Shown here: piece by piece, positions 16,251 to 34,036 of the stretch
How the letters are laid out: the number at the start of each line of letters is the position of its first letter
Position numbering within the stretch: the first letter of the stretch is position 1
Source of the DNA: Escherichia coli
GTDB taxonomy: Bacteria > Pseudomonadota > Gammaproteobacteria > Enterobacterales > Enterobacteriaceae
Assembly: GCF_044324785.1 (NCBI RefSeq)
Contig: NZ_CP172127.1
Strand: one strand, 5' to 3'
DNA length: 64,000 nt
Made by a program: the position numbers and the translations under genes
The notes under the pieces: generated by a model
What the model was told of the DNA's origin: nothing
What the model saw: only the letters and a program-made list of their open reading frames with translations
Databases searched by the model: none

Positions 16251-16290
16251 AACCGTTGCCTGGTGCGCTTCTCTTATCAGGTCTACAACC

Positions 16291-16317
16291 GAGCTAACGT
16301 ATGCCGGATAAGGCGTT
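16291..16317. repeat. left half of a REP/palindromic unit split by the IS insertion
   Basis: GCCGGATAAGGCGTT...; joining both flanks with one copy of GTT restores GCCGGATAAGGCGTTTACGCCGCATCCGGC. Confidence 0.7.
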
Positions 16318-16841
16318 TGAACTGCACCCCAAATGTTGGACATAATCTGACATCTGAAGGTGCAGTTTATGAAACATTCATTTGAAGTAAAACTTGCCGC
16401 TGTAAATCATTACCTGGCTGGTCATGCAGGCATCATTTCTACGGCAAAACTCTTTCAACTTTCTCACACCAGCCTCTCACACTGGATTAATCTTTTTCTT
16501 CTTCACGGTCCTCGGGCACTGGATTGCAGACACAAGCGTAGCTATTCTCCTGAAGATAAACTTTGCGTGGTTCTTTATGCTCTCGGGCATTCTGAGTCTC
16601 TACCCCGGGTAGCTGCCCGGTTTAACATTCCCAGCCACAACACGGTTAAAAACTGGATAAAAGGCTACCGCAAATCTGGTAATGAGGCCTTTATCAGGCG
16701 CAGGAAGGAGAAAAGCATGACCCGTTCTGATGATACCCATGAAAACGAGGCAAACATGACGCCGGAAGAGATGAAGAATGAGCTGCGTTATCTTCGCGCA
16801 GAAAATGCATATCTGAAAGCCATGCAGGAGCATCTCCTGGA

Positions 16842-17749
<908 letters not shown>

Positions 17750-17776
17750 GTTTACGCCGCATCCGGCAACCTGACA
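17750..17776. repeat. right half of the REP/palindromic unit split by the IS insertion
   Basis: GTTTACGCCGCATCCGGCAACC. Confidence 0.7.
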
Positions 17777-19635: not shown

Positions 19636-19997
19636 TTAGGGCACAGTTGCGAAAATTGAATCCCTTATGGACTAATGTGAGAAAATCCCGAGGTATGACT
19701 GTTTTGATATAGTGGACAATCAAGCGTCTCGAATTAACAATGAATTTCAGGTGCCAAGCCTTACAATTTGTAGCATGACGGATATAGGACAACATTAGGA
19801 AATCGGACAGAAAATTCATCATAATAAAATGACAACTTATCTCTTTCTCTCACTTTCTGAGAAATTTCACAAAAGTATAAACTGAGCCAATATGCCTTTA
19901 TATATAAAAAATACTCATGTTTATTATTATCGGAAAAAGCCAAGATTTGATTAAGGTGTATTAGTCGCGACTTGATCTGACACTGAGCCCTGAAAGG

Positions 19998-20243
19998 TTG
20001 AGAGTTACCGGTTTTGATATGGGTGTCGAATCCTTATACAAAACACGGGTAACTCTCATGCTTCATACTACCAATCCCGTTATCAAACACAAAGCCAGTT
20101 TGCTCAATCTGGCTGAAGAACTCAGCAACGTATCAAAAGCCTGTAAAATCATGGGCGTTTCGCGTGATACGTTTTATCGTTACCGCGAACTGGCCGATGA
20201 AGGCAGGGAAAGATTACGAAAGCCCGCTCCCTGCAAGGACTGA
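19998..20243 (+). pseudogene. transposase N-terminal HTH fragment (IS481/IS3-like), truncated
   Basis: 81-aa ORF ...[34 protein letters not shown] matches the GxSRxTxYxWxxRY HTH pattern; 3' end overlaps the H-repeat transposase. Confidence 0.3.
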
Positions 20244-21287
20244 CGCCAGGTAGTTTCTGTCCATGGCTGCTTTTCGCATCTTACGTCTTAACCCTGCCTT
20301 GAATACCTTATCATTCGTTAAAATATTAATAGCGATGTGCCGTATCCCTGAAAATAATTCTGCTGCATTTCCTCTTCTTATTTTGCAGTCGTCTTCATTC
20401 ATTACCACGTCCAGACGCCAGTGCAGCTTATTCTCCACGTGCCAGTGATTTCGGATCGCTGTGGCGAACTTCTCAGCGGTTAAATCAGCAGAACTGATGT
20501 AATATCTGACCGTCATTTCTGGCTCTTTCTTTTGTTCTGCTATTATGGACCGAAAGGAGACTGCCACGCATAATTTCTTCAGTCCTTTCCATTCAAACGT
20601 GAAATCAATAAGTTCATCAGGGACATCGCAAACAATATGAAGACGGATTTCTTCTCTGCCTTGACTTTTTTCACTAATTGCGTAACTGTCATGCTCTGGA
20701 TTATTTAATTCTTTCAGTGGGAATTTTTCCTCAAAGGCTTTATTAAGCCGCCCCTGATTTCCTTTTACAGCGAATAAATAATCACCGCCCTGTTTTTGTA
20801 TCTTCTCTGCGATATCTTTCTGGCAACCCATCGCATCAGTTGTGATAATTTTTCCTTTAATATCCAGCATGTTAAGAAGTTCAGGGATAGCTGTGATCTC
20901 ATTGGATTTCTTATCCGTCCTGATCTGTCCGATGACAAGACTGTGCATTGTTGAGAACGCACTAATGACATGAATCGCTCCCCTGCGGCGACTCTTGTCA
21001 TAAGAATGCCGGAGCGTTTTTCCATCAATTGCAATAACGTCTTTATCATCTGAAGAATGGCAGTCACGCATCCCGTTAATAAAGCACTCGTGAAATTTTA
21101 CAGGACTGATACAGGATACAACTCTGGCAATGGTATCGTGAACAGGAATACCATTTTCAAAATCACCATATTGCTTCAAAAAATCGAGATGTGTTTCCCC
21201 AAAATCCTCTATATCTTCCCAGCATTCTGCACCAGAAATAACGGCACAAATAGTCAACAGTAGAATATCCGACAATTTATGTTCCAC
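20214..21287 (-). CDS. ISAs1-family (H-repeat-associated) transposase; frame extends to ATG at 21350 but is interrupted by an in-frame TAG at 21291..21293
   Basis: 357-aa ORF (V/M)[35 protein letters not shown]... typical of Rhs-linked H-rpt ORF-H; upstream in-frame MELKKLMEHISIIPDYRQA-TAG-K. Confidence 0.8.
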
Positions 21288-21630
21288 TTTCTAGGCTTGT
21301 CTGTAATCGGGGATAATAGAAATATGTTCCATCAATTTTTTCAGTTCCATTTTGTTCTCCTTAATTATGTAAGGAGTATTTGATCATGTATACGCAATAA
21401 AAAACAGCTTTAGGTAATAAGGAATATCTCAATTTTTAAACATAAAATGCGAATTATTTAGTACAAAAAGTGAACTTCTGATGATCTTTCCCTGCCCATT
21501 GGGTTCATTAAGATCAAGAATAATGGGAATATGCTCAAGAAGACTTTGAATGTTCACCAGACGTCCTTTTCTAATATATTTAATTATTTGGCGATTAAAT
21601 TTTAATCAAATCAACAAGGTAAAACCAAGA

Positions 21631-21660
21631 TTAAAGTTGTGATGATAATCACAACTTTAA
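21631..21660. terminator. perfect 13-bp inverted repeat (TTAAAGTTGTGAT-GATA-ATCACAACTTTAA), candidate terminator downstream of the Rhs immunity gene
   Basis: seen directly; on the minus strand it is followed by TCTTGGTTTT. Confidence 0.4.
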
Positions 21661-21696
21661 TGATCTTCCCCTGATTCCTCCAGTCCTTTTATTTGG

Positions 21697-22071
21697 TTAC
21701 TCTAATGGTTTTATTAATTGTAAATTTTTAAATGTCATGCTTAATAAGCCATCAGAAAAATAAAGAAAAAATTTATATATCCTTTTGTTTTTTAATTTCT
21801 TTATATACCCATTACTTATATTACCTGACTTGTGATTATCGATTAACTCAGCAGAATCCATAGCGAACACTAAATCATCTACATCAGAAAATTCAACTAT
21901 CATTTTTTCCCTAATGTTCTCATTTTTATAAATGTCAATAAATAACGTCATGTTAAAATGAGATTCTTTGAATGTCGTTTTTACTTCTAACAAAACCCCA
22001 TCATGCCAGTCAATTGAACTCACAATGTCAAAATCGCTCATTATATAATCTCCATTATCCGTTTTAATCAT
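21697..22071 (-). CDS. ydcD: Rhs-associated immunity protein (YdcD-like), about 124 aa
   Basis: [31 protein letters not shown]...; ATG (22071..22069) overlaps the Rhs stop TGA (22070..22068) as ATGA; no signal peptide; AT-rich. Confidence 0.7.
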
Positions 22072-25000
22072 GGAGTAACAACGTTTGCAGGTATTGACCA
22101 CCAAAGAGGTGGTGCAAGTGAAGGTATAAATCGAATCACTCTATATATAACATACCCTGCGCCAATTGTAGCACCAGTTGCAAGAGCCGCATCAGTAGTT
22201 GATAGCCCGGAGGTTTTGCATGACAGATCTTTACTTGGTTCTGGCTCGAAACCATATTTTTTTGCACATTTCTTAATGCTATTTGGTGCTGATGAGTAAT
22301 CCTCACCATGGGACATACCTCCAAATTCCCCCATTACACCACTCCCATTTTTACACTCCCAATGCAAATGTCTTCCGTCACCAACAGCATCGCCATCTAT
22401 TCGGATTCGACAACCTTTACCACAGTCCTTCCATTTTCCTGAAGTATGAGCTAATCCCAATGGATCAATCCATTGCACAGGATTGTTCATAACATAACTG
22501 TACGGGTTTATTCCCCCCGCCAGCCCTATCGGATCCTGGATGATATACCGCCCCTGCAACGGATCGTAGTACCGGTGACGGTTATAATACAGCCCCGACT
22601 CCTCATCGTGTTGCTGCCCAGGCAGACGGTAGGGCTGGTGCAGGTGATGCGGGTTTTCCTCATTCAGCAGGTTTCCCCACTCATCATACTCCCCGCTCCA
22701 CGCCGTATTGCCGTCTTCGCTGATGAGCGCCAGCGGCAGGCCCCGGTGGTCGCAGTGGTAAAGATGAACTTTTCGCGCCGGTGTGTATTCCGGCTCCACC
22801 TGTCTGGCCAGTTGCTCTACCGTCAGCCCGCACTGCGCAAGCCACGCCCGGCTTTCACTGCTCACGCGGTCTGCCCGGATTTCCCCCTCCAGCCTGTCCA
22901 GCATCCTCACAAGTTCTGCCGGGAACACCACACCGTGTCCGTTCTCGCTCCCTTCCTGCTGCAACTTCTCCGCCAGGCTCCGCCGCTGCGTTTTCTCCCG
23001 CTCGCCGTTGTCTGTTTCGATGCGGATGAGTGGTGTGAAGCTTCCCGGCTCGTATACCGTCTGGATACGTGTGCTGTCGGTCTGCACCGTCGTCAGGTGG
23101 TCGCCGTCCCAGCCGTACCACGTCACCTCCGGTTTACGCGACAGCGACATCCACCCCGTCAGGTCACGTACCCGCCGCCACACCCGTTTACCCGTCCGGC
23201 GGCCCAGCGGGTCGTAGAGGTAGCGGCTCTCCACCTGCGGCTCGCCATGCTGTATCCGCGTGTAGAACACCAGGCGGTGCTGGCTGTCGTAGTGGTAGTG
23301 GTGGGTCCGCTCGTCGTCCGTCCGTATCACACCCGCCGGGATGCGGTCCGTCTTCTCCGTCAGCCTGCCGTATTCATCGTGGCGGTAGACATAGTGCGCA
23401 TCCTCCGCGATGCGGTTATCCGGCCACACTGTGAGTGTACTGTCCGGGTGCAGCTCCGGGTCCGGCAGCCGGTTGCCCGCCGGGTCCGTGGCATACGGGA
23501 TGCGGATGTCCAGGTCCGGTGCGAGGGTGCGCACACTCTCCAGCCTGCCCGTGGCGCTGTAGCCGTATTCCCGCGTCTGTCGCGGGCCGCTGATGCGCAC
23601 CAGGTCGCCGTTGTCATTCCACCCGTAGTCACGGTCATACACCAGGCTGTTCAGGTGCTGGCTCTGTAACTGGCCTGCGGGGGTGTATGTGCTGGTCAGT
23701 TCGTATGCGGCATTACTGCCTGCCATGCTGCCGAAGCTGCGCACCGTCTCCCGGTGCAGCCTGTCCCGCGTATACTCGACCCGCGGCGTCCCGCCCAGCT
23801 TCATTCCCGCCAGGTAACCGCTGCCATACGTCAGCCACTCCACCGGCGGCAGGCTGTCCGGCGTGACGCGGTTTGCCAGCCCCTGCTCGTTGTATGCGTG
23901 TTTCGTCTCATGCTGCCACAGCAGTTCCCCCGTCTCCGGGTTCTCCACCGTCTGGCGTTCGCCGGTCAGGCGGCCTTTATCGTCATAGCCGTAGTGGACC
24001 GCCACACGGTGGCCTTCACTGATATGGCTGAGGGTGGTTAACCACCCGTGCTCATCATACTGCCACTGCTCTGCCGGGTCGCCGTTCACCGTCCGGTGCG
24101 TGATGCGGTCTGCTTCATCGTAGTACCACTGCGTGACCTGCCCCTCATCCTAGCTGCGGATGAGCTGCCCTGTGGCGCTGTACCGGTAACGCTGTGTCCT
24201 GCCATCAAAGCCGCGCTGCTCCGTCAGGCGGTCCAGCACATCGTAGGTAAATTCACTCCGGCTGCCGTTCTCGTTGGTCAGCACGGTGATGCGCCCGGCA
24301 GCGTCATACCCCATGCTGCGCGTCAGCCCGCCTTCCGTCACACTCACCGGACGCCCGCGTTTATCATATGCGATGGTGCTGCGTTTACCGTCCGGTGATA
24401 TCGTTGCTGTCAGGTCGCCTGCGGCACTGTACTCATAACGGGTTTCACGCCCCTGCGCATCCTTCTGCCCTGTCAGCCTGCCGCGGCTGTCATAGAGACT
24501 ATAAATACTGAGACCTTCCTCCCGGTGAACGGCGATTTGTTGACCGTACCGGTCATACTCATACCGCGTCATGTACCCCGAGCAGTCCGTGAAGGCCCGA
24601 AGCTGACCGTACCGGTTTCGCGTTATTCTCCGCGTTACCCCGATTCCGTCTTCCACCGCGCCGGGCAGGCTACTGCGGGGGGAGTCATAAAACCAGCGTG
24701 TAATGTTACCGTTGCGCGAGGTCTCTTCTGCCAGTCGGCCCTGACGGTCATATTTCCGGCTGCTGCGTAAACCATCCGGATATGTCACTGAAGTCAGTTG
24801 CAACTGGCTGTTATAGCCATACCACACCGTCCTGCCGTCCGGCAGTATCACTGAAGTCAGCTTTCCAGACGCCATATGCAGCCGGTTCACCGTCCGCCGC
24901 CCCGCCGCATCCGTCTGCGCCTTCAGCCTCCCCGCCTCATCATACTCGCTGCGGGTGATGCTCCCGTCCGCATGCTCCTTCTTCACCACCCGCTTCAGAC

Positions 25001-26242
25001 CACCTTCGCCTTCCGTGTACAGCACCTCCCGCCGGTTCAGGCTGTCCGTGATGGTCACACGGTCCTGCCCGTACTCAAAGCGGTAGTCCAGTCCCTCCTG
25101 GTTGACCTGCTCCGTCACCCGCCCGGTATCATCATACCGGTAGCGGCTCTCCGGCCTCCCTGCATAATGGCGCGCCACCATCCGCCCGGCGTGCTCCGCA
25201 TCATAAGTAAACCCGCGCACCTGCGTCCCGCTGCGGTCATACACCGCCCGCAGTTCTCCGCTGGCCGTGTACGTGTAGCGCGCCAGCGGCGCAGTCGGCT
25301 GTTCATCCGGGTATGCCGGGTCGTGTGTCAGCCACACCGCCTCCAGACGGATACCGTTATCCGTGCCGTATTCTGTACCGGCGGGCAGCGTGTCGGGGAA
25401 AGCTGAAGAAGAGGAAGCAGAACGGGGACCTGCAGGGGAAGATAAAGACGTGGCGCGCTGTTTACGGAGGGCTTCCGCCCGCTGCGCCTGTGTGGTCAGC
25501 GCCAGATGAAAACGGCGGCCCGCGCCGTCCGTCACCCCCGTCACCGCGCCCGCCGCTTCCCCCTCTGCCGCCCGGTGGAAGGCCAGCGTCCGCCCGAAGC
25601 CGTCCACCACGCCCGTCAGCACCCGGTATGCGGGCGGCTCCGGCGGCAGCACCTCGTCCGCCTCCGGCACCCGCTCCGGCCAGCCGAGTATCAGCCACTG
25701 CCCGGTTGTGCTGGCAGCCATCATATAGATGTGTGGACTCAGACGGACCGCTTCCGGCAACGCCCGCCAGAGCCGCGCAAGCGGGTGGCCTTTGTGCTGT
25801 TTCAGCACCCCGCCCCGCGCCAGCCAGAACGACTCACTGCGGCTGTAACTTATCTCGCCGGGAAACAGGGGTTCAAAGTGAATACTTCTGCCGCCACTGT
25901 CGTTGAGTATCAGGCCTTCATCGCGTATCTGTAAGCGGATATCGAAGGGGGCTTTCCAGCCGGGACCAAACACCCCACCGGCGCGGGTGTCCTGGTCCGG
26001 TAGCTGCTGTAAGCGCGAGAAAGAATAAACGGCAGCGGGCCGGGCAGCGCAAGGTCCGTCTCGCCCGGCAGCACCTTCGCACCCAGTAGCGGGTTCAGCG
26101 GGTTAGCATAGGTAATCCCTCCCGGACACACCGAGCAGGCCACTCCCGTCGGCGCACCTATCAGCCCCCCTGCTGAACCCTGCACAATATCCAGTCCCTT
26201 GCGGGTCATGTCACCCTGCCGCGCCGCCGGTTTTCCGCTCAT
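22068..26242 (-). pseudogene. rhsE: Rhs family protein, full-length copy inactivated by a 1-nt deletion (about 25968) and an in-frame TAG (24150..24152); C-terminal tail differs from the upstream Rhs
   Basis: Three collinear minus ORFs (25910..26242, 24150..25973, 22068..24089) together align along the intact Rhs at 26781..31043; core ends ...[28 protein letters not shown] then a 127-aa unique tail. Confidence 0.8.
22480..24089. repeat. Rhs core segment nearly identical to 27286..28895 (direct repeat, constant offset 4806 bp)
   Basis: Identical encoded protein over about 380 aa ([28 protein letters not shown]...KLQQEGSE) and identical antisense ORFs at 22473..23669 and 27903..28475. Confidence 0.85.
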
Positions 26243-26318
26243 GGTTTATTCCTTTTCTTTTACCTTACATGTCCATACAAATAGTTACCTATACTGTCTT
26301 TGAATATTGCCCTACCAT

Positions 26319-26768
26319 TTAAAGCCCACCTATTTCTTGCGACAGAAAAGGGATTTCTTTTTTAATCCAATCTACCATTTCATTTTTTTCAAAACATACG
26401 TTAATGCCATTCACACTTCCACATTCACCAAAACCATCAAAATAAATTTCACATTTATTATTTTTATTCGAAACAATGTCAATCCCCCATCTTATATCGT
26501 TATTCTCCTCCTTCCTGAAATACTTCATTTGCAATAAATCAATTATCTCACCAGCATAAAAATCGCTAACCCCATTCACCACCACTTTATGTTTGTATAT
26601 TCTCTTGAGACCTTCCTTGCTAAGCGGGGTTAAGGTGGTAACATATGCTGGAAGATTAATTATTTCTATCGTTTTCACACTATCTATTCCACACAATTCA
26701 TTCACTCGCCCCATCCCCAATACCGAAGCAGAAAATAGAGACAATAAAACCATCAAATATTTCATCAT
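26319..26768 (-). CDS. candidate immunity protein for the Rhs HExxH tail; predicted exported (N-terminal signal peptide), 149 aa
   Basis: Starts 12 bp after the Rhs stop; MMKYLMVLLSLFSASVLG hydrophobic N-terminus; four Cys (C26, C116, C123, C131); AT-rich. Confidence 0.7.
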   Translation of the reverse strand: MMKYLMVLLSLFSASVLGMGRVNELCGIDSVKTIEIINLPAYVTTLTPLSKEGLKRIYKHKVVVNGVSDFYAGEIIDLLQMKYFRKEENNDIRWGIDIVSNKNNKCEIYFDGFGECGSVNGINVCFEKNEMVDWIKKEIPFLSQEIGGL

Positions 26769-26780
26769 AAAAAAATCTCA

Positions 26781-29700
26781 CTATTCTGGCGTGCCATTTA
26801 TTGTTGCCGTCTGTGTTGGTGTATTCACACGATAATACACTCCATTATATGCTGTTCTGGTACACTCACCTAAAGTTTTCGCCGCATGCTGTTCAATTAA
26901 AGTGATAACTCTCGCCTCTTCTTTATTTTTATATTGTTCATCCGCACGTCTCACAAGCCCCATATAGCCATCCTTATCAATAAGATATAAGTGCGCATGA
27001 GCAAACTCATGCCCCAAACCTAATGCAGGTGATTGTGATTTCGATTTTAAATCAGTTGAACAAAATAAAGCCGCCTTACCATTCCAATATATAGTCATTT
27101 TATCCGGGTCAAATCTAACGTCGGTTTCATCAATATACTCTATCTTTATGGTTTCTTCAGAGCTTGATAAAAAATCTATAGCTTCTTTCATTCGTGAATC
27201 TTGTTTTAAATACTCAACAGCCTGATTAAAATCACTTGGATCATCGTTAACATGGAATTTTAAACCCAAAGAATCTATAAACCGAACAGGGTTTAATGGA
27301 TATTTATACAGATTCCATTCACCTCTTAGCCCGATTGGATCCTGGGTGATATACCTCCCCTGTAGCGGGTCATAGTACCGGTTCCGGTTATAGTACAGTC
27401 CTGATTCCTCATCATGCTGCTGCCCCGGCAGACGGTATGGCTGGTGCAGGTGATGCGGGTTCTCCTCATTCAGCAGGTTGCCCCATTCATCATATTCCCC
27501 ACGCCATTCCGTTGCTCCTTCGGTACTGATGAGCGCCAGCGGCAGCCCCCGGTGGTCACAGTGATAAAGATGAATTTTTCGCTCAGGTAAATAAACCGGC
27601 TCTATCTGTGCCGCCAGCCGCTCCACCGTCAGCCCGCACTGTGCCAGCCACGCCCGGCTTTCACTGCTCACGCGGTCTGCCCGGATTTCCCCCTCCAGCC
27701 TGTCCAGCATCCTCACAAGTTCTGCCGGGAACACCACACCGTAGCCGTCCTCGCTTCCTTCCTGCTGCAACTTCTCCGCCAGGCTCCGCCGCTGCGTTTT
27801 CTCCCGCTCGCCGTTGTCTGTTTCGATGCGGATGAGTGGTGTGAAGCTTCCCGGCTCGTATACCGTCTGGATACGTGTGCTGTCGGTCTGCACCGTCGTC
27901 AGGTGGTCGCCGTCCCAGCCGTACCACGTCACCTCCGGTTTACGCGACAGCGACATCCACCCCGTCAGGTCACGTACCCGCCGCCACACCCGTTTACCCG
28001 TCCGGCGGCCCAGCGGGTCGTAGAGGTAGCGGCTCTCCACCTGCGGCTCGCCATGCTGTATCCGCGTGTAGAACACCAGGCGGTGCTGGCTGTCGTAGTG
28101 GTAGTGGTGGGTCCGCTCGTCGTCCGTCCGTATCACACCCGCCGGGATGCGGTCCGTCTTCTCCGTCAGCCTGCCGTATTCATCGTGGCGGTAGACATAG
28201 TGCGCATCCTCCGCGATGCGGTTATCCGGCCACACTGTGAGTGTACTGTCCGGGTGCAGCTCCGGGTCCGGCAGCCGGTTGCCCGCCGGGTCCGTGGCAT
28301 ACGGGATGCGGATGTCCAGGTCCGGTGCGAGGGTGCGCACACTCTCCAGCCTGCCCGTGGCGCTGTAGCCGTATTCCCGCGTCTGTCGCGGGCCGCTGAT
28401 GCGCACCAGGTCGCCGTTGTCATTCCACCCGTAGTCACGGTCATACACCAGGCTGTTCAGGTGCTGGCTCTGTAACTGGCCTGCGGGGGTGTATGTGCTG
28501 GTCAGTTCGTATGCGGCATTACTGCCTGCCATGCTGCCGAAGCTGCGCACCGTCTCCCGGTGCAGCCTGTCCCGCGTATACTCGACCCGCGGCGTCCCGC
28601 CCAGCTTCATGCCCGCCAGGTAACCGCTGCCATACGTCAGCCACTCCACCGGCGGCAGGCTGTCCGGCGTGACGCGGTTTGCCAGCCCCTGCTCGTTGTA
28701 TGCGTGTTTCGTCTCATGCTGCCACAGCAGTTCCCCCGTCTCCGGGTTCTCCACCGTCTGGCGTTCGCCGGTCAGGCGGCCTTTATCGTCATAGCCGTAG
28801 TGGACCGCCACACGGTGGCCTTCACTGATATGGCTGAGGGTGGTTAACCACCCGTGCTCATCATACTGCCACTGCTCTGCCGGGTCGCCGTTCACCGTCC
28901 GGTGCGTGATGCGGTCTGCTTCATCGTAGTACCAGAGGATGACAAGCCCCTCATCTTCACTCTGCGTGAGTTTTCCGGTCAGGTCATAATGATAACGTTG
29001 CGTCCGCCCGTCAAAGCCGCGCTGCTGTACCAGGCGGTCCAGCGCATCGTAGCTGAAGTCGCTGTGACTGCCGTTCTCGTTGGTCAGGCTGATGACACGT
29101 CCGGCAGCATCGTACTCCATACTGCGCGTCAGCCCGCCCTGCGTGGTGCTGACCGCCTTTCCCCACGCATCGTACTGTGTCTCGCTCCGGTTGCCGTCCG
29201 GGGTGATAACGGCAGTCAGGTCGCCTGCGGCGTTGTACTCATACTGCGTTTCACGGCCCTGTGCGTCTTTCACCGAGGTTAACCGGCCACGGTTGTCATA
29301 GCGGCGGTAACGGCTGATACCTTCCTCACGGTGGACCGCCGTCATCTGACCAAAGCGGTCGTATTCATAACGGGTCTGGTAGCCCGAGCAGTCGGTGAAC
29401 GCCAGCAACTGCCCGTAGCGGCTCCAGGTCATCTGCCGGGTGCTGCCCGTCGCATCCGTTGTCGTCGCCGGTAATTCACTGTGCGGATTATCATAAGCAT
29501 ACCGGATGACGTCCCCACTGCGCGATGTCTCCGTTACCAGCCTGCCCGGTTCATCATATGCCCGGCGGCTCTCCAGCCCGTCCGGGGACACCACTGCCGT
29601 CACCTGGTTCCCGTCGTTATAGTAAAATTTCGTCTCCCGCCCGTCCGGTGTGGTGATGTCCGTGATATCGCCTGACACCACATTCAGACCGTACTCTGTC

Positions 29701-31043
29701 CGCCGTCCCGCCGCGTCCGTCTGCGCCGTAAGCCGCCCCACCGGGTCATACCCGCTGCGCGTGACGCTGCCGTCCGCCAGTTCTTTTTTCACCACCCGTT
29801 TCAGCCCGCCTTCACCTTCTGTATGCAGCACCTCACGCCGGTTCAGGCTGTCCGTGACGGTGATGCGGTCCTGCTCATACTGGTAGCGGTAACTCAGGCC
29901 TGCCGGGTTCAGCTGCTCCACCACCCGCCCCGCATCGTCGTAGCGGTAGCGCATCTCCGGCCTTCCCGCGTAACGGTGCGCCACCATCCGGCCCGGGTGC
30001 TGCGCGTCATACGTGAAAGCGCGCACCTGCGTATTGCTGCGGTCATATACCGCCAGCAGTTCACCGGCTTCCGTATACGTGTACCGCGCCAGTGGCGCAC
30101 CGGGCAGATTCTCCGGGTATGCCGGGTCGTACATCAGCCACACCGCTGAAAGACGGATACCCCTGTCGGGGCCGTATTCCGTACCGGGCAGTGTGTCGGG
30201 GAAAGCTGAGTCTGAAAGAGGGCGGGGGGTGTCAGGGGAAAATAAGGAAGCGGTGTGCTGTTTACGGGCCTCTTCCGCCCGCTGCGCCTGCGTGGTCAGC
30301 ACCAGACGGAACTCCCGCCCGGCACCGTCCGTCACGCCGGTGATTTCCCCGGCCAGGTCACCGGCGGCCTCACGCCGGTACGCCAGCGTCCGCCCGAAGC
30401 GGTCTGCCAGCCCGGTAAGCACCCGGTACGGCGGCAGCGGCGCTGGCAGTACGTCCTCAGCACCCGGCACCCGCTCTGACCACCCCAGTATCCACCACGG
30501 CCCCTGTGCGCTGTTGGTCGCCAGGTAAAGATGCGGGCTTAACCGGATATCCGGCGGCAGCGCCCCCCACAGCCGTGCCAGCGTGTGGCCGTCCGGCTGC
30601 GCTGCCTTACCACCGCGCACCAGCCACATTGACTCGCTGCGGCTGTACACCGCCTCACCCGGCAGCAGCGGCTCAAAGTGAATGCTCCGCCCGCCGTTGT
30701 CGTTGAGTATCAGTCCGTCATCACGTAGCTGTAAGCGGATATCAGAAGGCGCTTTCCAGCCGGGGCCGAAAACGCCCACCGGCGCAGGCGTCTTCGTCCG
30801 GTAGCTGCTGTAGGTGCGGGAGAGAATGAACGGCAGCGGGCCGGGCAGCGCAAGGTCCGTCTCGCCGGGCAGCACCTTCGCCCCCAGCAGCGGATTTACC
30901 GGGTTGCCCGAAGTCATCCCGCCCGGACACACCGAGCACGCCACGCCGGTGGGCGCGCCAATTCTTACACCTGCCGAACCCTGGACAATGGGACCGCCAT
31001 ACTGAGTCATATCTCCCTGACGCGCCGCTGGTTTTCCGCTCAT
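26781..31043 (-). CDS. Rhs family protein with conserved PAAR-like N-terminus, YD-repeat core and C-terminal tail containing an HExxH motif, 1420 aa
   Basis: [42 protein letters not shown]...; YD repeats; core ends ...[27 protein letters not shown]; tail 26781..27260 contains [10 protein letters not shown] (codons at 26997..27011). Confidence 0.9.
27286..28895. repeat. Rhs core segment nearly identical to 22480..24089
   Basis: see paired repeat. Confidence 0.85.
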
Positions 31044-31109: not shown

Positions 31110-33218
31110 TCAGTACTCTCTCATATCCGGCGTATCCTGCTTTTCATCAGGGGTCTTCGGTGGGGATTTCGAGGCTGCACAGTTCCAGTTAATCAACAGT
31201 GAGTCACCATTAACCTGCTCCTTACCCTGCAAATGAATTTTTGTGCCGTTGAGAAAAATTTGTCCGTCCTTAGTCAGCACCAGCCTTGCCTTACCACAGC
31301 AGAGTTCCAGATGCTCACCGGCGGAGTAAATCGCGGTCTGCCCGGTATCATCCTTTTTCGTTTTACCAACGGTGAAGGTAACGTTATTTCCGACTTTGAC
31401 GTCATAACCCAGCCCGACCCTCAACGATTTATGCAAACCGATCTGCGAGGACTGCATCAGGGCCACCGAGGTGTTCATAATGCCACCTACCGTCGTCTGA
31501 TACGCCACGCCCACAGTCAGCGCACGCACAAGTCCAATCGTTTCCACCTGAACAGAGCCCACTTTAATGATCTGGTTACTGCCCACCGTCTCTATCTGGT
31601 TAACACCCACCGTCTGTATCTGATTGTTGGTAACCGCAATCATCTGATTGTTGCCAATGGTCTCAGCATGGTTGTTTATCACATCCGTGGTGCGGTTATT
31701 CAGCACCTCGGTGTTCATATTCTTCTGCGCGTGGATGTAGACCTGTTCTTTCCCTGTCGCATCGTCAAACTTCAGTTCATTAAACCCGCTGCCCTTATAG
31801 GTTTTCGAACGAATGGTCATCTGCGTCTTTGTTCCCGGCAGGCTGCCGGGGGTGCGGTTTTCCTGGTGGTAGGTACGCCCCATAATAATCGGCTGGTCCG
31901 GATCGCCGTTGAGGAAGTCCACAATGACTTCCTGACCCACACGCGGTATCGCCAGGTTGCCAAAGCTGGTGCCTGCCCACGCCTGTGCCACACGGATCCA
32001 GCATGAACTGTCCTGGTTTGACGGGTTATAGCGGTCCCAGTTAAATTTCACCCGCACGCGGCCATGTTCATCACAGAAGATTTCCTCGCCTGCCGGTCCT
32101 GTCACGACGGCGCTCTGCGGGCCATCCACCAGCGGTTTCAGCAACGGCTGTGGTCGCCATGTTCTGTCTGCCGGTATTACCGCAAAGTGGTTATTCAGTG
32201 TGGTACCCGAACCACTGCGTCCCGGCACCGCCTGCGGCTGCTCGCCGTGCAGATCGCTCGCCACCACCTGCCATTCACGGTTCAGGTTCGCCTGCGGATG
32301 CCCCGTCAGCGCAATTCGCCGTCCCGGCCATATCTCCGGCGAACGGCTTGTTCCGCGCGCCACTTCTGCGTTGTTTCGCCAGCCATCCATCTGCCAGCGG
32401 GCAAAGTTCTGCCCGTGGGCACCCTTGAAACGTCCGGGGTAGTCATACACTTCATACTGTGTGCGCTGGTAATCCTGGTGCTGGCCTTCCTGATCAAAAC
32501 GCCCTGCCCAGCCGGGTCGTTTAAAGGTGTAGTCTTTGGTCACCACGGAAGATGGGCGGATTTGTGCGCTGTAGCGGAACTGGCTGATGCAGAGGGTGCT
32601 CACCTCGGTACGGGTGTTCGGATTCCAGGGGATCTCAAAGGACTCCGGCAGATAACGCACGGTGTCGCACAGGACCAGGCTCTGGTCGGTACTTTTTTGC
32701 GCGTGCTCCTCATAAAAGAAGATGCCTTCCTCCGCCGCCATCCGGCACAGGAAATCGTAATCGGTCTCACCGTACTGGACACAAAATTCACGGGAAGGAT
32801 GCGGCTCGCTGAACAGCGGACTCCACTCGGTCACCCCGTTTTCTTTCAGGATCGTCACGAGGATGCTTTCGATGTCCTCATTCTGGAAGATACGGAAGTT
32901 CTGGCGCAGCCCTGTGCGCCACAGCGGTGGGCACACCTTCATGCTGTACAGCATCTGGTTTTTGTCGTTCTCCCCCAGTTCAAACCAGGTCACCACACCT
33001 TTCACCCGGCGCTGTACGTCATCGCCCTGCCATACCGTCAGGTAGGCCATTTTGTCCAGCACCTGCGCAAATTCAAGGGAAAGAAACTGCTGACTGACCA
33101 GAGAAAGGTCGAGGGAAAAAAGTGAAGAGAGTGACTGGTTCAGATGAAAGGAGACCACCGCAAACGCGTCCGGTGGCAGGCCGTCCACTTCCAGCGTGAA
33201 ACGTAATCCGGTTGACAT
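31110..33218 (-). CDS. vgrG: VgrG (type VI secretion spike protein), about 702 aa
   Basis: MSTGLRFTLEVDGLPPDAFAVVSFHLNQSLSSLFSLDLSLVS... with GGAGG RBS; ends 67 bp before the Rhs start; track ORF extends to 33323 but the RBS supports 33218. Confidence 0.88.
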   Translation of the reverse strand: MSTGLRFTLEVDGLPPDAFAVVSFHLNQSLSSLFSLDLSLVSQQFLSLEFAQVLDKMAYLTVWQGDDVQRRVKGVVTWFELGENDKNQMLYSMKVCPPLWRTGLRQNFRIFQNEDIESILVTILKENGVTEWSPLFSEPHPSREFCVQYGETDYDFLCRMAAEEGIFFYEEHAQKSTDQSLVLCDTVRYLPESFEIPWNPNTRTEVSTLCISQFRYSAQIRPSSVVTKDYTFKRPGWAGRFDQEGQHQDYQRTQYEVYDYPGRFKGAHGQNFARWQMDGWRNNAEVARGTSRSPEIWPGRRIALTGHPQANLNREWQVVASDLHGEQPQAVPGRSGSGTTLNNHFAVIPADRTWRPQPLLKPLVDGPQSAVVTGPAGEEIFCDEHGRVRVKFNWDRYNPSNQDSSCWIRVAQAWAGTSFGNLAIPRVGQEVIVDFLNGDPDQPIIMGRTYHQENRTPGSLPGTKTQMTIRSKTYKGSGFNELKFDDATGKEQVYIHAQKNMNTEVLNNRTTDVINNHAETIGNNQMIAVTNNQIQTVGVNQIETVGSNQIIKVGSVQVETIGLVRALTVGVAYQTTVGGIMNTSVALMQSSQIGLHKSLRVGLGYDVKVGNNVTFTVGKTKKDDTGQTAIYSAGEHLELCCGKARLVLTKDGQIFLNGTKIHLQGKEQVNGDSLLINWNCAASKSPPKTPDEKQDTPDMREY

Positions 33219-34036
33219 AGCAACCTCCGTGAAAATGAATAATAATCCGCACATATTGCATGTACAACATGTCGGGCGGATGAGATAAGCGAGTCGACAT
33301 CTGGCGTTACCGGGGAATATCAAAAAATGTCATGGTTATGTGATGATTTAGTCTGGGATTTTACTTCAGAGAAACGGGTGTCTGTTTAGTCAACAAAATA
33401 ATCACAAACGCAACGGATGGGTTCTCGACGTTATTCACGACAGGCTCGTACATTACAGCGAGTAATAAAAACCTGATATGCAAAGTCAAACCAATATTCA
33501 TAATGTCTTTTTATTCACAACAATAAATAATTCAATAACAATCATTGAAATGAATGATGGTTTGTATAAGGAATATACGCTGCCGCCCCACCCTGATAAC
33601 ATGATCTGCACATTGCCATCTTAACGTCGTTAAACACTGGCTTAATAGTGGATATTTAAAATTAGGAATTTATTAAATTCACCTGATGAATATCATAAGC
33701 AAATAGCATAGAAAATAATGACAACTCCCCCGAGGGGACCATTTCCAAAGCACTGCACCACCACCTGGTGCCCGGATGATCTTGCTTCAGTGGTAAGAGT
33801 ACCTGATTCATTGTTCCCAAAATGGTGTTTTCCCCTGCCCCTCCAATAATGTGCAGCTCTCACGTGATAATCTATTGATTAGGTTATATTAAGAATCAAT
33901 ATTTGAAATACATCCATTTTCTTGAATAAATCAACATGTTTATTTATCAATTGCTGTTTTAGCTCTGACTCATCAAGCTCTCCATATTTGTCCTACAGAT
34001 AATCGCGAATAAATACAGAGAACGCCATTTATCCTT

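Follow-up and report, generated by a model that had tools for sequence, protein, structure and literature searches.

The window analysed here, that is, the whole stretch of 64,000 nucleotides of E. coli DNA, contains on its minus strand a complete copy of the insertion sequence ISEc1 (H-rpt, ISAs1 family), closing a vgrG-rhs cluster at its 3' end (Table 1). The locus is the rhsE/ydcC neighbourhood of K-12, and as in K-12 it presents rhs, H-rpt, yddH, nhoA, yddE and narZ in order. The initial annotation had remarked that H-rpt elements are attached to Rhs loci, and this is the case here, RHS core ORFs and a Tox-WTIP tip adjoining the element upstream (22068-31043). The two small ORFs of the cluster occupy the usual immunity-gene position behind Rhs units, and both Rhs genes are annotated as frameshifted in strain N3.

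Table 1. Coordinates of the features of the ISEc1 locus and of the changes private to its transposase gene
Feature	Position in window	Strand	Remark or basis
737-aa ORF, vgrG-like by reading of its sequence	31110-33323	-	
Intact 1420-aa Rhs ORF	26781-31043	-	
Small ORF, no Pfam match	26319-26768	-	after the 1420-aa Rhs unit
Orphan Rhs core, three ORFs	22068-26242	-	ends in Tox-WTIP toxin tip (22068-24089)
Small ORF, no Pfam match	21697-22104	-	after the orphan Rhs core
Remnant (~180 bp) of the left end of another ISAs1-family element, K-12 yncI type	21495..21673	-	truncated at the ISEc1 boundary
Complete ISEc1 (H-rpt, ISAs1 family) element, 1291 bp	20204..21494	-	gapless alignment with copies from unrelated genomic settings
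Left terminal inverted repeat IRL, CAGGGAAAGATCA	21482..21494	-	inverted-repeat pattern search
Shine-Dalgarno (SD) AAGGAG of the native ATG 21350	21357..21362	-	anti-SD duplex -9.2 kcal/mol
Probable transposase pseudogene (ydcC-type ORF-H)	20214..21350	-	378 codons, internal TAG at codon 20
L3, synonymous	21342		private to window copy
Amber codon, formerly TGG (Trp20)	21291..21293	-	comparison with five intact copies
W20*, nonsense	21292		private to window copy
GTG codon 22, sole plausible restart codon, no SD	21285..21287	-	anti-SD duplex energy
A84V, missense	21100		private to window copy
W93G, missense	21074		private to window copy
E147K, missense	20912		private to window copy
H230Q, missense	20661		private to window copy
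Right terminal inverted repeat IRR, CAGGGAAAGATTA	20204..20216	+	overlaps TAA stop codon
247-bp 5' fragment of IS481-family transposase gene (HTH_29, MLHTTNPVIKHKASLL...)	19957..20203	+	abuts ISEc1 right end
yddH, nhoA, IS3-family element, then sequence matching N3 yddE-narZ	below 19957		

The ISEc1 element and its junctions

Homology to the ISEc1 copies of isolate SC418 and of K-12 (H-rptE = ydcC, b1460) ends at 21494 and 20204, and the element therefore measures 1291 bp. The span reported initially, 20214-21350, is right for the reading frame, and the mobile element is larger (20204-21494). Over its whole length the window copy aligns without gaps to both relatives, with 98.8% identity to SC418 (15 mismatches) and 96.4% DNA identity to ydcC, which has the same length, the same inverted repeats and a 378-codon ORF. 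Terminal inverted repeats had been suggested at the outset as the means to define the element; they map its ends to 20204 and 21494, read CAGGGAAAGAT(C/T)A, and are both intact. This pattern is matched four times within the 64-kb window, against 0.12 matches expected by chance. The fourth match (31744-31756) lies within the 737-aa ORF and was therefore taken as fortuitous. Of 5426 complete E. coli genomes, 4915 have a single match that covers at least 80% of a 1401-bp query made of the element and its flanks. The median number of places per genome is six, and their annotation is 'ISAs1-like element ISEc1 family transposase'.

Target-site duplications were examined at three copies. The flanks of the window copy (...CCCAATGGG and CCTTCATCGG...) contain none, nor do those of K-12 ydcC, while a direct duplication of 10 bp (GCAGTCAGGT) borders the SC418 copy and is a true footprint of transposition. 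The missing duplication is consistent with a later rearrangement of the flanks, and gives no ground to exclude the copy from ISEc1. Apart from the interrupted frame and the absent target duplication, all sequence criteria identify it as ISEc1/H-rpt. According to one paper, H-rpt has not been seen to transpose (PMC3032704); another mentions that circles of ISAs1 may form, very rarely (bioRxiv 10.1101/2024.07.17.603846). The duplication in SC418 suggests that H-rpt transposition does occur in nature.

At its left end, the element abuts a stub of yncI type, made of an IR (CAGGGGAAGATCA), a 5' leader and a GTG start at 21557 with 21 codons (VNIQSLLEHIPIILDLNEPNG). Codons 19-21 of K-12 yncI are caa gga aag, which is nearly the ISEc1 IRL (CAGGGAAAG), and on this comparison the junction between stub and ISEc1, which 354 of the 5426 genomes share, may lie in a 9-bp microhomology. 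Just inside its IR, the stub has a perfect hairpin of 13-14 bp (21630-21661, minus strand; -17.8 kcal/mol, z = -5.0), followed by a T-run and scored as terminator-like. The same subterminal hairpin is found in K-12 yncI (L003, ~8483-8514; -22.6 kcal/mol, z = -6.9), and the sequence differences found in each of its two arms look compensatory by eye. This hairpin may block read-in transcription.

At the right end, the IS481 fragment stands in place of 54 bp that are present in strain 1190, and the ISEc1/IS481 junction was found only in strain N3 among the 5426 genomes. It looks like the outcome of an insertion, then of a deletion that started from the end of ISEc1 and extended outward. Unlike the rhsE/ydcC locus of K-12, that of the window combines a yncI-type element reduced to a stub of ~180 bp, the absence of pptA and the IS481 fragment at the right end. 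Further along, an IS3-family element of ~1.46 kb (~16285-17750), absent from N3, lies between nhoA and yddE; its 240-aa ORF (16995-17717) contains rve, rve_2 and HTH_21 domains.

The interrupted transposase gene

The minus-strand frame 20214-21350, as translated from the window, consists of 378 codons and a TAA stop at 20214-20216. It opens at ATG 21350 and reads MELKKLMEHISIIPDYRQA up to the TAG of codon 20, its sole internal stop, after which come AAA and then GTG; the program-made list of ORFs contains a 357-aa ORF started at this GTG (20214..21287). The locus had first been described as an H-rpt/ISAs1-family transposase frame with a single in-frame amber codon, and translation and family profile both agree with this description. 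Once codon 20 is repaired, the protein matches the NCBIfam profile NF033564 (ISAs1 family transposase) with E=4e-120 and 400.7 bits, for a cut-off of 70 bits, and its Pfam architecture is PF13808 (residues 8-92) followed by PF01609 (residues 102-343). Given these three matches, the frame is not a chance ORF. In a large protein collection, thousands of ISAs1-family transposases match, many of them of exactly 376-378 aa, and the hosts of the relatives of this size are Escherichia, Salmonella, Citrobacter, Serratia, Dickeya and Raoultella.

Alignment with intact copies, proposed earlier as a way to find the residue under the TAG, gives Trp20: codon 20 is TGG in all five intact DNA copies (SC418, K-12 ydcC, XJ6.1, JNEC-KY178 and strain 1190), and the change is a G->A at window position 21292. 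In an alignment with 17 full-length protein homologues (65-96% identity), this position is Trp in 15 and Gly in the other two. Ten of the first 21 residues (M1, L6, I10, I13, P14, D15, Y16, R17, Q18 and K21) are invariant among the 17 homologues, and the PF13808 match, which begins at residue 8, takes in the segment upstream of the stop. Since this N-terminus is strongly conserved across the family, ATG 21350 is, on the alignment, the native start. The opposite case, a native start downstream of the TAG, had been named as what would overturn the initial description; it is contradicted by the conservation of residues 1-21 in homologues down to 65% identity.

Three acidic columns, D109, D172 and E306, are invariant in the family alignment and kept in the window copy, and are the putative catalytic residues of the DDE domain. 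An AlphaFold2 model of the repaired protein, based on an 18-sequence alignment, has a mean pLDDT of 58, with values of 31-43 over residues 1-102, so that the N-terminal domain is not modelled. A search of the PDB with the family profile gave no match better than E = 0.2, hence no solved relative.

The SD of ATG 21350 pairs with CUCCUU at 21371-21376, forming a 7-bp hairpin (CUCCUUA...UAAGGAG; -8 kcal/mol, z = -2.9). This stretch of the leader (21357-21376, minus strand) is invariant in six of six copies, and so carries no covariation. The hairpin may provide translational attenuation, as in other IS elements. A scan of the element for promoters and terminators yielded counts no higher than in shuffled sequence.

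Spread and age of the amber codon

A 61-mer centred on the TAG has an exact match in only one of the 5426 complete E. coli genomes, that of strain N3 (NZ_CP031609.1). It matches 4640 further records at 95-99% identity, those among the matches listed being at 98.4%, with one mismatch. In N3, NCBI's annotation pipeline PGAP labels the identical sequence 'ydcC, ISAs1 family transposase', pseudo, 'internal stop'. The window and N3 are 100% identical over the 1401 bp that include the TAG, and differ by 64 mismatches over 11.7 kb, as well as by the additional IS of ~1.46 kb that the window has between nhoA and yddE.

The question arises as to whether the TAG could be a sequencing or assembly error, the true codon being TGG and the gene intact. 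A single-base G/A difference is indeed the commonest kind of error. However, the same TAG-bearing 1401 bp are found in N3, which is a different genome, given its 64 mismatches and its lack of the IS at ~16285-17750. As the two sequences differ, the TAG stands in two independent assemblies, which makes an error unlikely, and we attach almost no probability to it.

The left junction, made of the Rhs-tip flank and the left end of ISEc1, is common to 354 of the 5426 genomes. Three of the genomes sharing it were examined, XJ6.1 and JNEC-KY178 (WP_275877217.1) and strain 1190 (WP_000421032.1). Like the window, they have the identical left junction, the Rhs-tip flank and the full 1291-bp element; the shared junction makes their copies orthologous to that of the window. 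Their codon 20 is TGG, unlike that of the window copy, and their 378-codon genes are open and intact. By this comparison of genomes, an old insertion has acquired a recent, strain-specific stop.

The window copy is a mosaic. Its first ~270 bp, G43C included, match the orthologous copy of XJ6.1/JNEC-KY178, whereas for the other ~1 kb the nearest copy is that of SC418, which stands at an unrelated locus (15 differences, versus 38 for XJ6.1). Such a structure suggests gene conversion between ISEc1 copies.

Six changes, five non-synonymous and one synonymous, are private to the window copy among the six copies compared (Table 1). The window copy differs from K-12 ydcC, in particular, by TAG in place of TGG at codon 20 and by the four private missense changes. 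Two of these affect conserved positions: 16 of the 17 homologues have Trp at 93, and at least 90% have His at 230. The ratio of non-synonymous to synonymous changes is 5:1 among private changes versus 27:47 among four intact copies (Fisher p = 0.035, with only six private sites). This excess of private missense changes points towards relaxed constraint, as far as such small numbers allow. D109, D172, E306 and both inverted repeats are intact, and the decay is therefore young.

A comparable case is the yncI pseudogene of K-12, another Rhs-linked ISAs1-family transposase gene inactivated by point lesions. The two differ in age, K-12 yncI having several stops and frameshifts, which indicate old decay, whereas the single stop of the window copy indicates young decay.

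Possible products of the interrupted gene

Three readings of the interrupted frame had been left open by the initial annotation: a dead pseudogene, a product restarted downstream of the stop, and suppression of the amber codon. The checks favour the first, and leave the other two unsupported (GTG22 has no SD, no tRNA gene lies in the window and the stop is private to one lineage). Very probably, we are dealing with an ISEc1 copy at the rhsE/ydcC locus whose transposase gene lost its function through a recent nonsense mutation (G->A, TGG->TAG), and which is now an ordinary decaying pseudogene. Translation would begin at ATG 21350, with its strong SD, and end after 19 residues. Hardly any transposase, if any, would then be produced, and we infer that functional protein is lacking. 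The copy would evolve as a pseudogene, gathering missense changes at conserved positions. With regard to what is expected of an autonomous IS, it lacks an uninterrupted transposase frame and retains the acidic residues that are invariant in the family. Self-mobilisation would be impossible, making it a functionally non-autonomous pseudo-copy, although with both inverted repeats intact it could in principle be moved in trans by the transposase of other ISEc1 copies. A point against the pseudogene reading is that the putative catalytic residues and the inverted repeats are intact, so that a product of suppression or restart might in principle still be catalytically competent.

Alternatively, ribosomes terminating at the TAG could reinitiate 4 nt further, at GTG 21287. 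In E. coli, ribosomes are known to terminate at early nonsense codons and then reinitiate, as in the lacI and T4 rIIB restarts. The GTG, two codons past the TAG and in frame, opens the 357-aa ORF, and its product, deprived of residues 1-21, would hold the complete DDE domain (residues 102-343); it might be active, or dominant-negative on other ISEc1 copies in the manner of Inh. However, the anti-SD duplex of GTG22 amounts to +0.1 kcal/mol, versus -9.2 for the native ATG and a mean background of -2.8 over the element: there is no SD, and this codon would be usable only by termination-reinitiation, which is an inefficient process. Codon 22 is Val in five of the six copies, and ATG in K-12 ydcC. 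The restart product would also be devoid of eight invariant residues of the PF13808 domain (I10, I13, P14, D15, Y16, R17, Q18 and K21, in the motif I-x-x-IPDYRQ-x-x-K), and the frame downstream of GTG22 has further damaging-looking changes, W93G and H230Q. Moreover, the TAG allele is private to one lineage, hence not a selected arrangement. An exact-sequence look-up of the 357-aa GTG-started product in a public gene collection returned no record. We therefore consider a restart product with any real effect to be quite improbable.

A more specific version of this scenario is that the restarted protein, without its IPDYRQ segment, could multimerise or compete with full-length transposase, and thereby act as an accidental, Inh-like damper of H-repeat transposition in the lineage. 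The Inh protein of IS50/Tn5 is an N-terminally truncated transposase produced from an internal start, and is conserved and dedicated, with its own initiation signals. The hypothetical GTG22 product would resemble it in being a DDE_Tnp_1-type transposase without its N-terminal segment. In contrast to Inh, the internal start has no SD here, and the arrangement is a private mutation; no dedicated internal initiation signal (SD and start codon) for an Inh-like product was found. By analogy, such a role is conceivable, and we hold it to be very improbable.

Finally, a suppressor tRNA or near-cognate readthrough could decode the TAG and so yield full-length transposase, at a level both low and regulated. 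Some basal readthrough of UAG does occur in E. coli, and the frame is favourable in that this is the only stop, the remainder being open. However, the 64-kb window contains no tRNA gene, and none of the other ISEc1 copies examined has the stop, nor do 5425 of the 5426 genomes, so that it is not a conserved recoding site; the position is a sense codon in five of five aligned copies and in all 17 protein homologues. The excess of private missense changes also speaks against continued selection on the frame. To our knowledge, IS elements use programmed frameshifting, not stop readthrough. We thus find it scarcely credible that the TAG is decoded in this way.

The pseudogene reading being retained, its novelty is limited. 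Defective H-rpt copies are already known, as is this exact allele, through PGAP in N3; literature searches for ISEc1, H-rpt and ISAs1 gave no report of amber-interrupted copies. One more point-inactivated IS copy, already flagged by PGAP in the sole complete genome that shares the allele, carries little weight. For annotation purposes, the locus should be called an ISEc1 pseudogene, 20204-21494, rather than a 357-aa gene started at the GTG. Together, the private TAG and the unique ISEc1/IS481 junction constitute a handy lineage marker, which ties the source strain of the window to E. coli N3.
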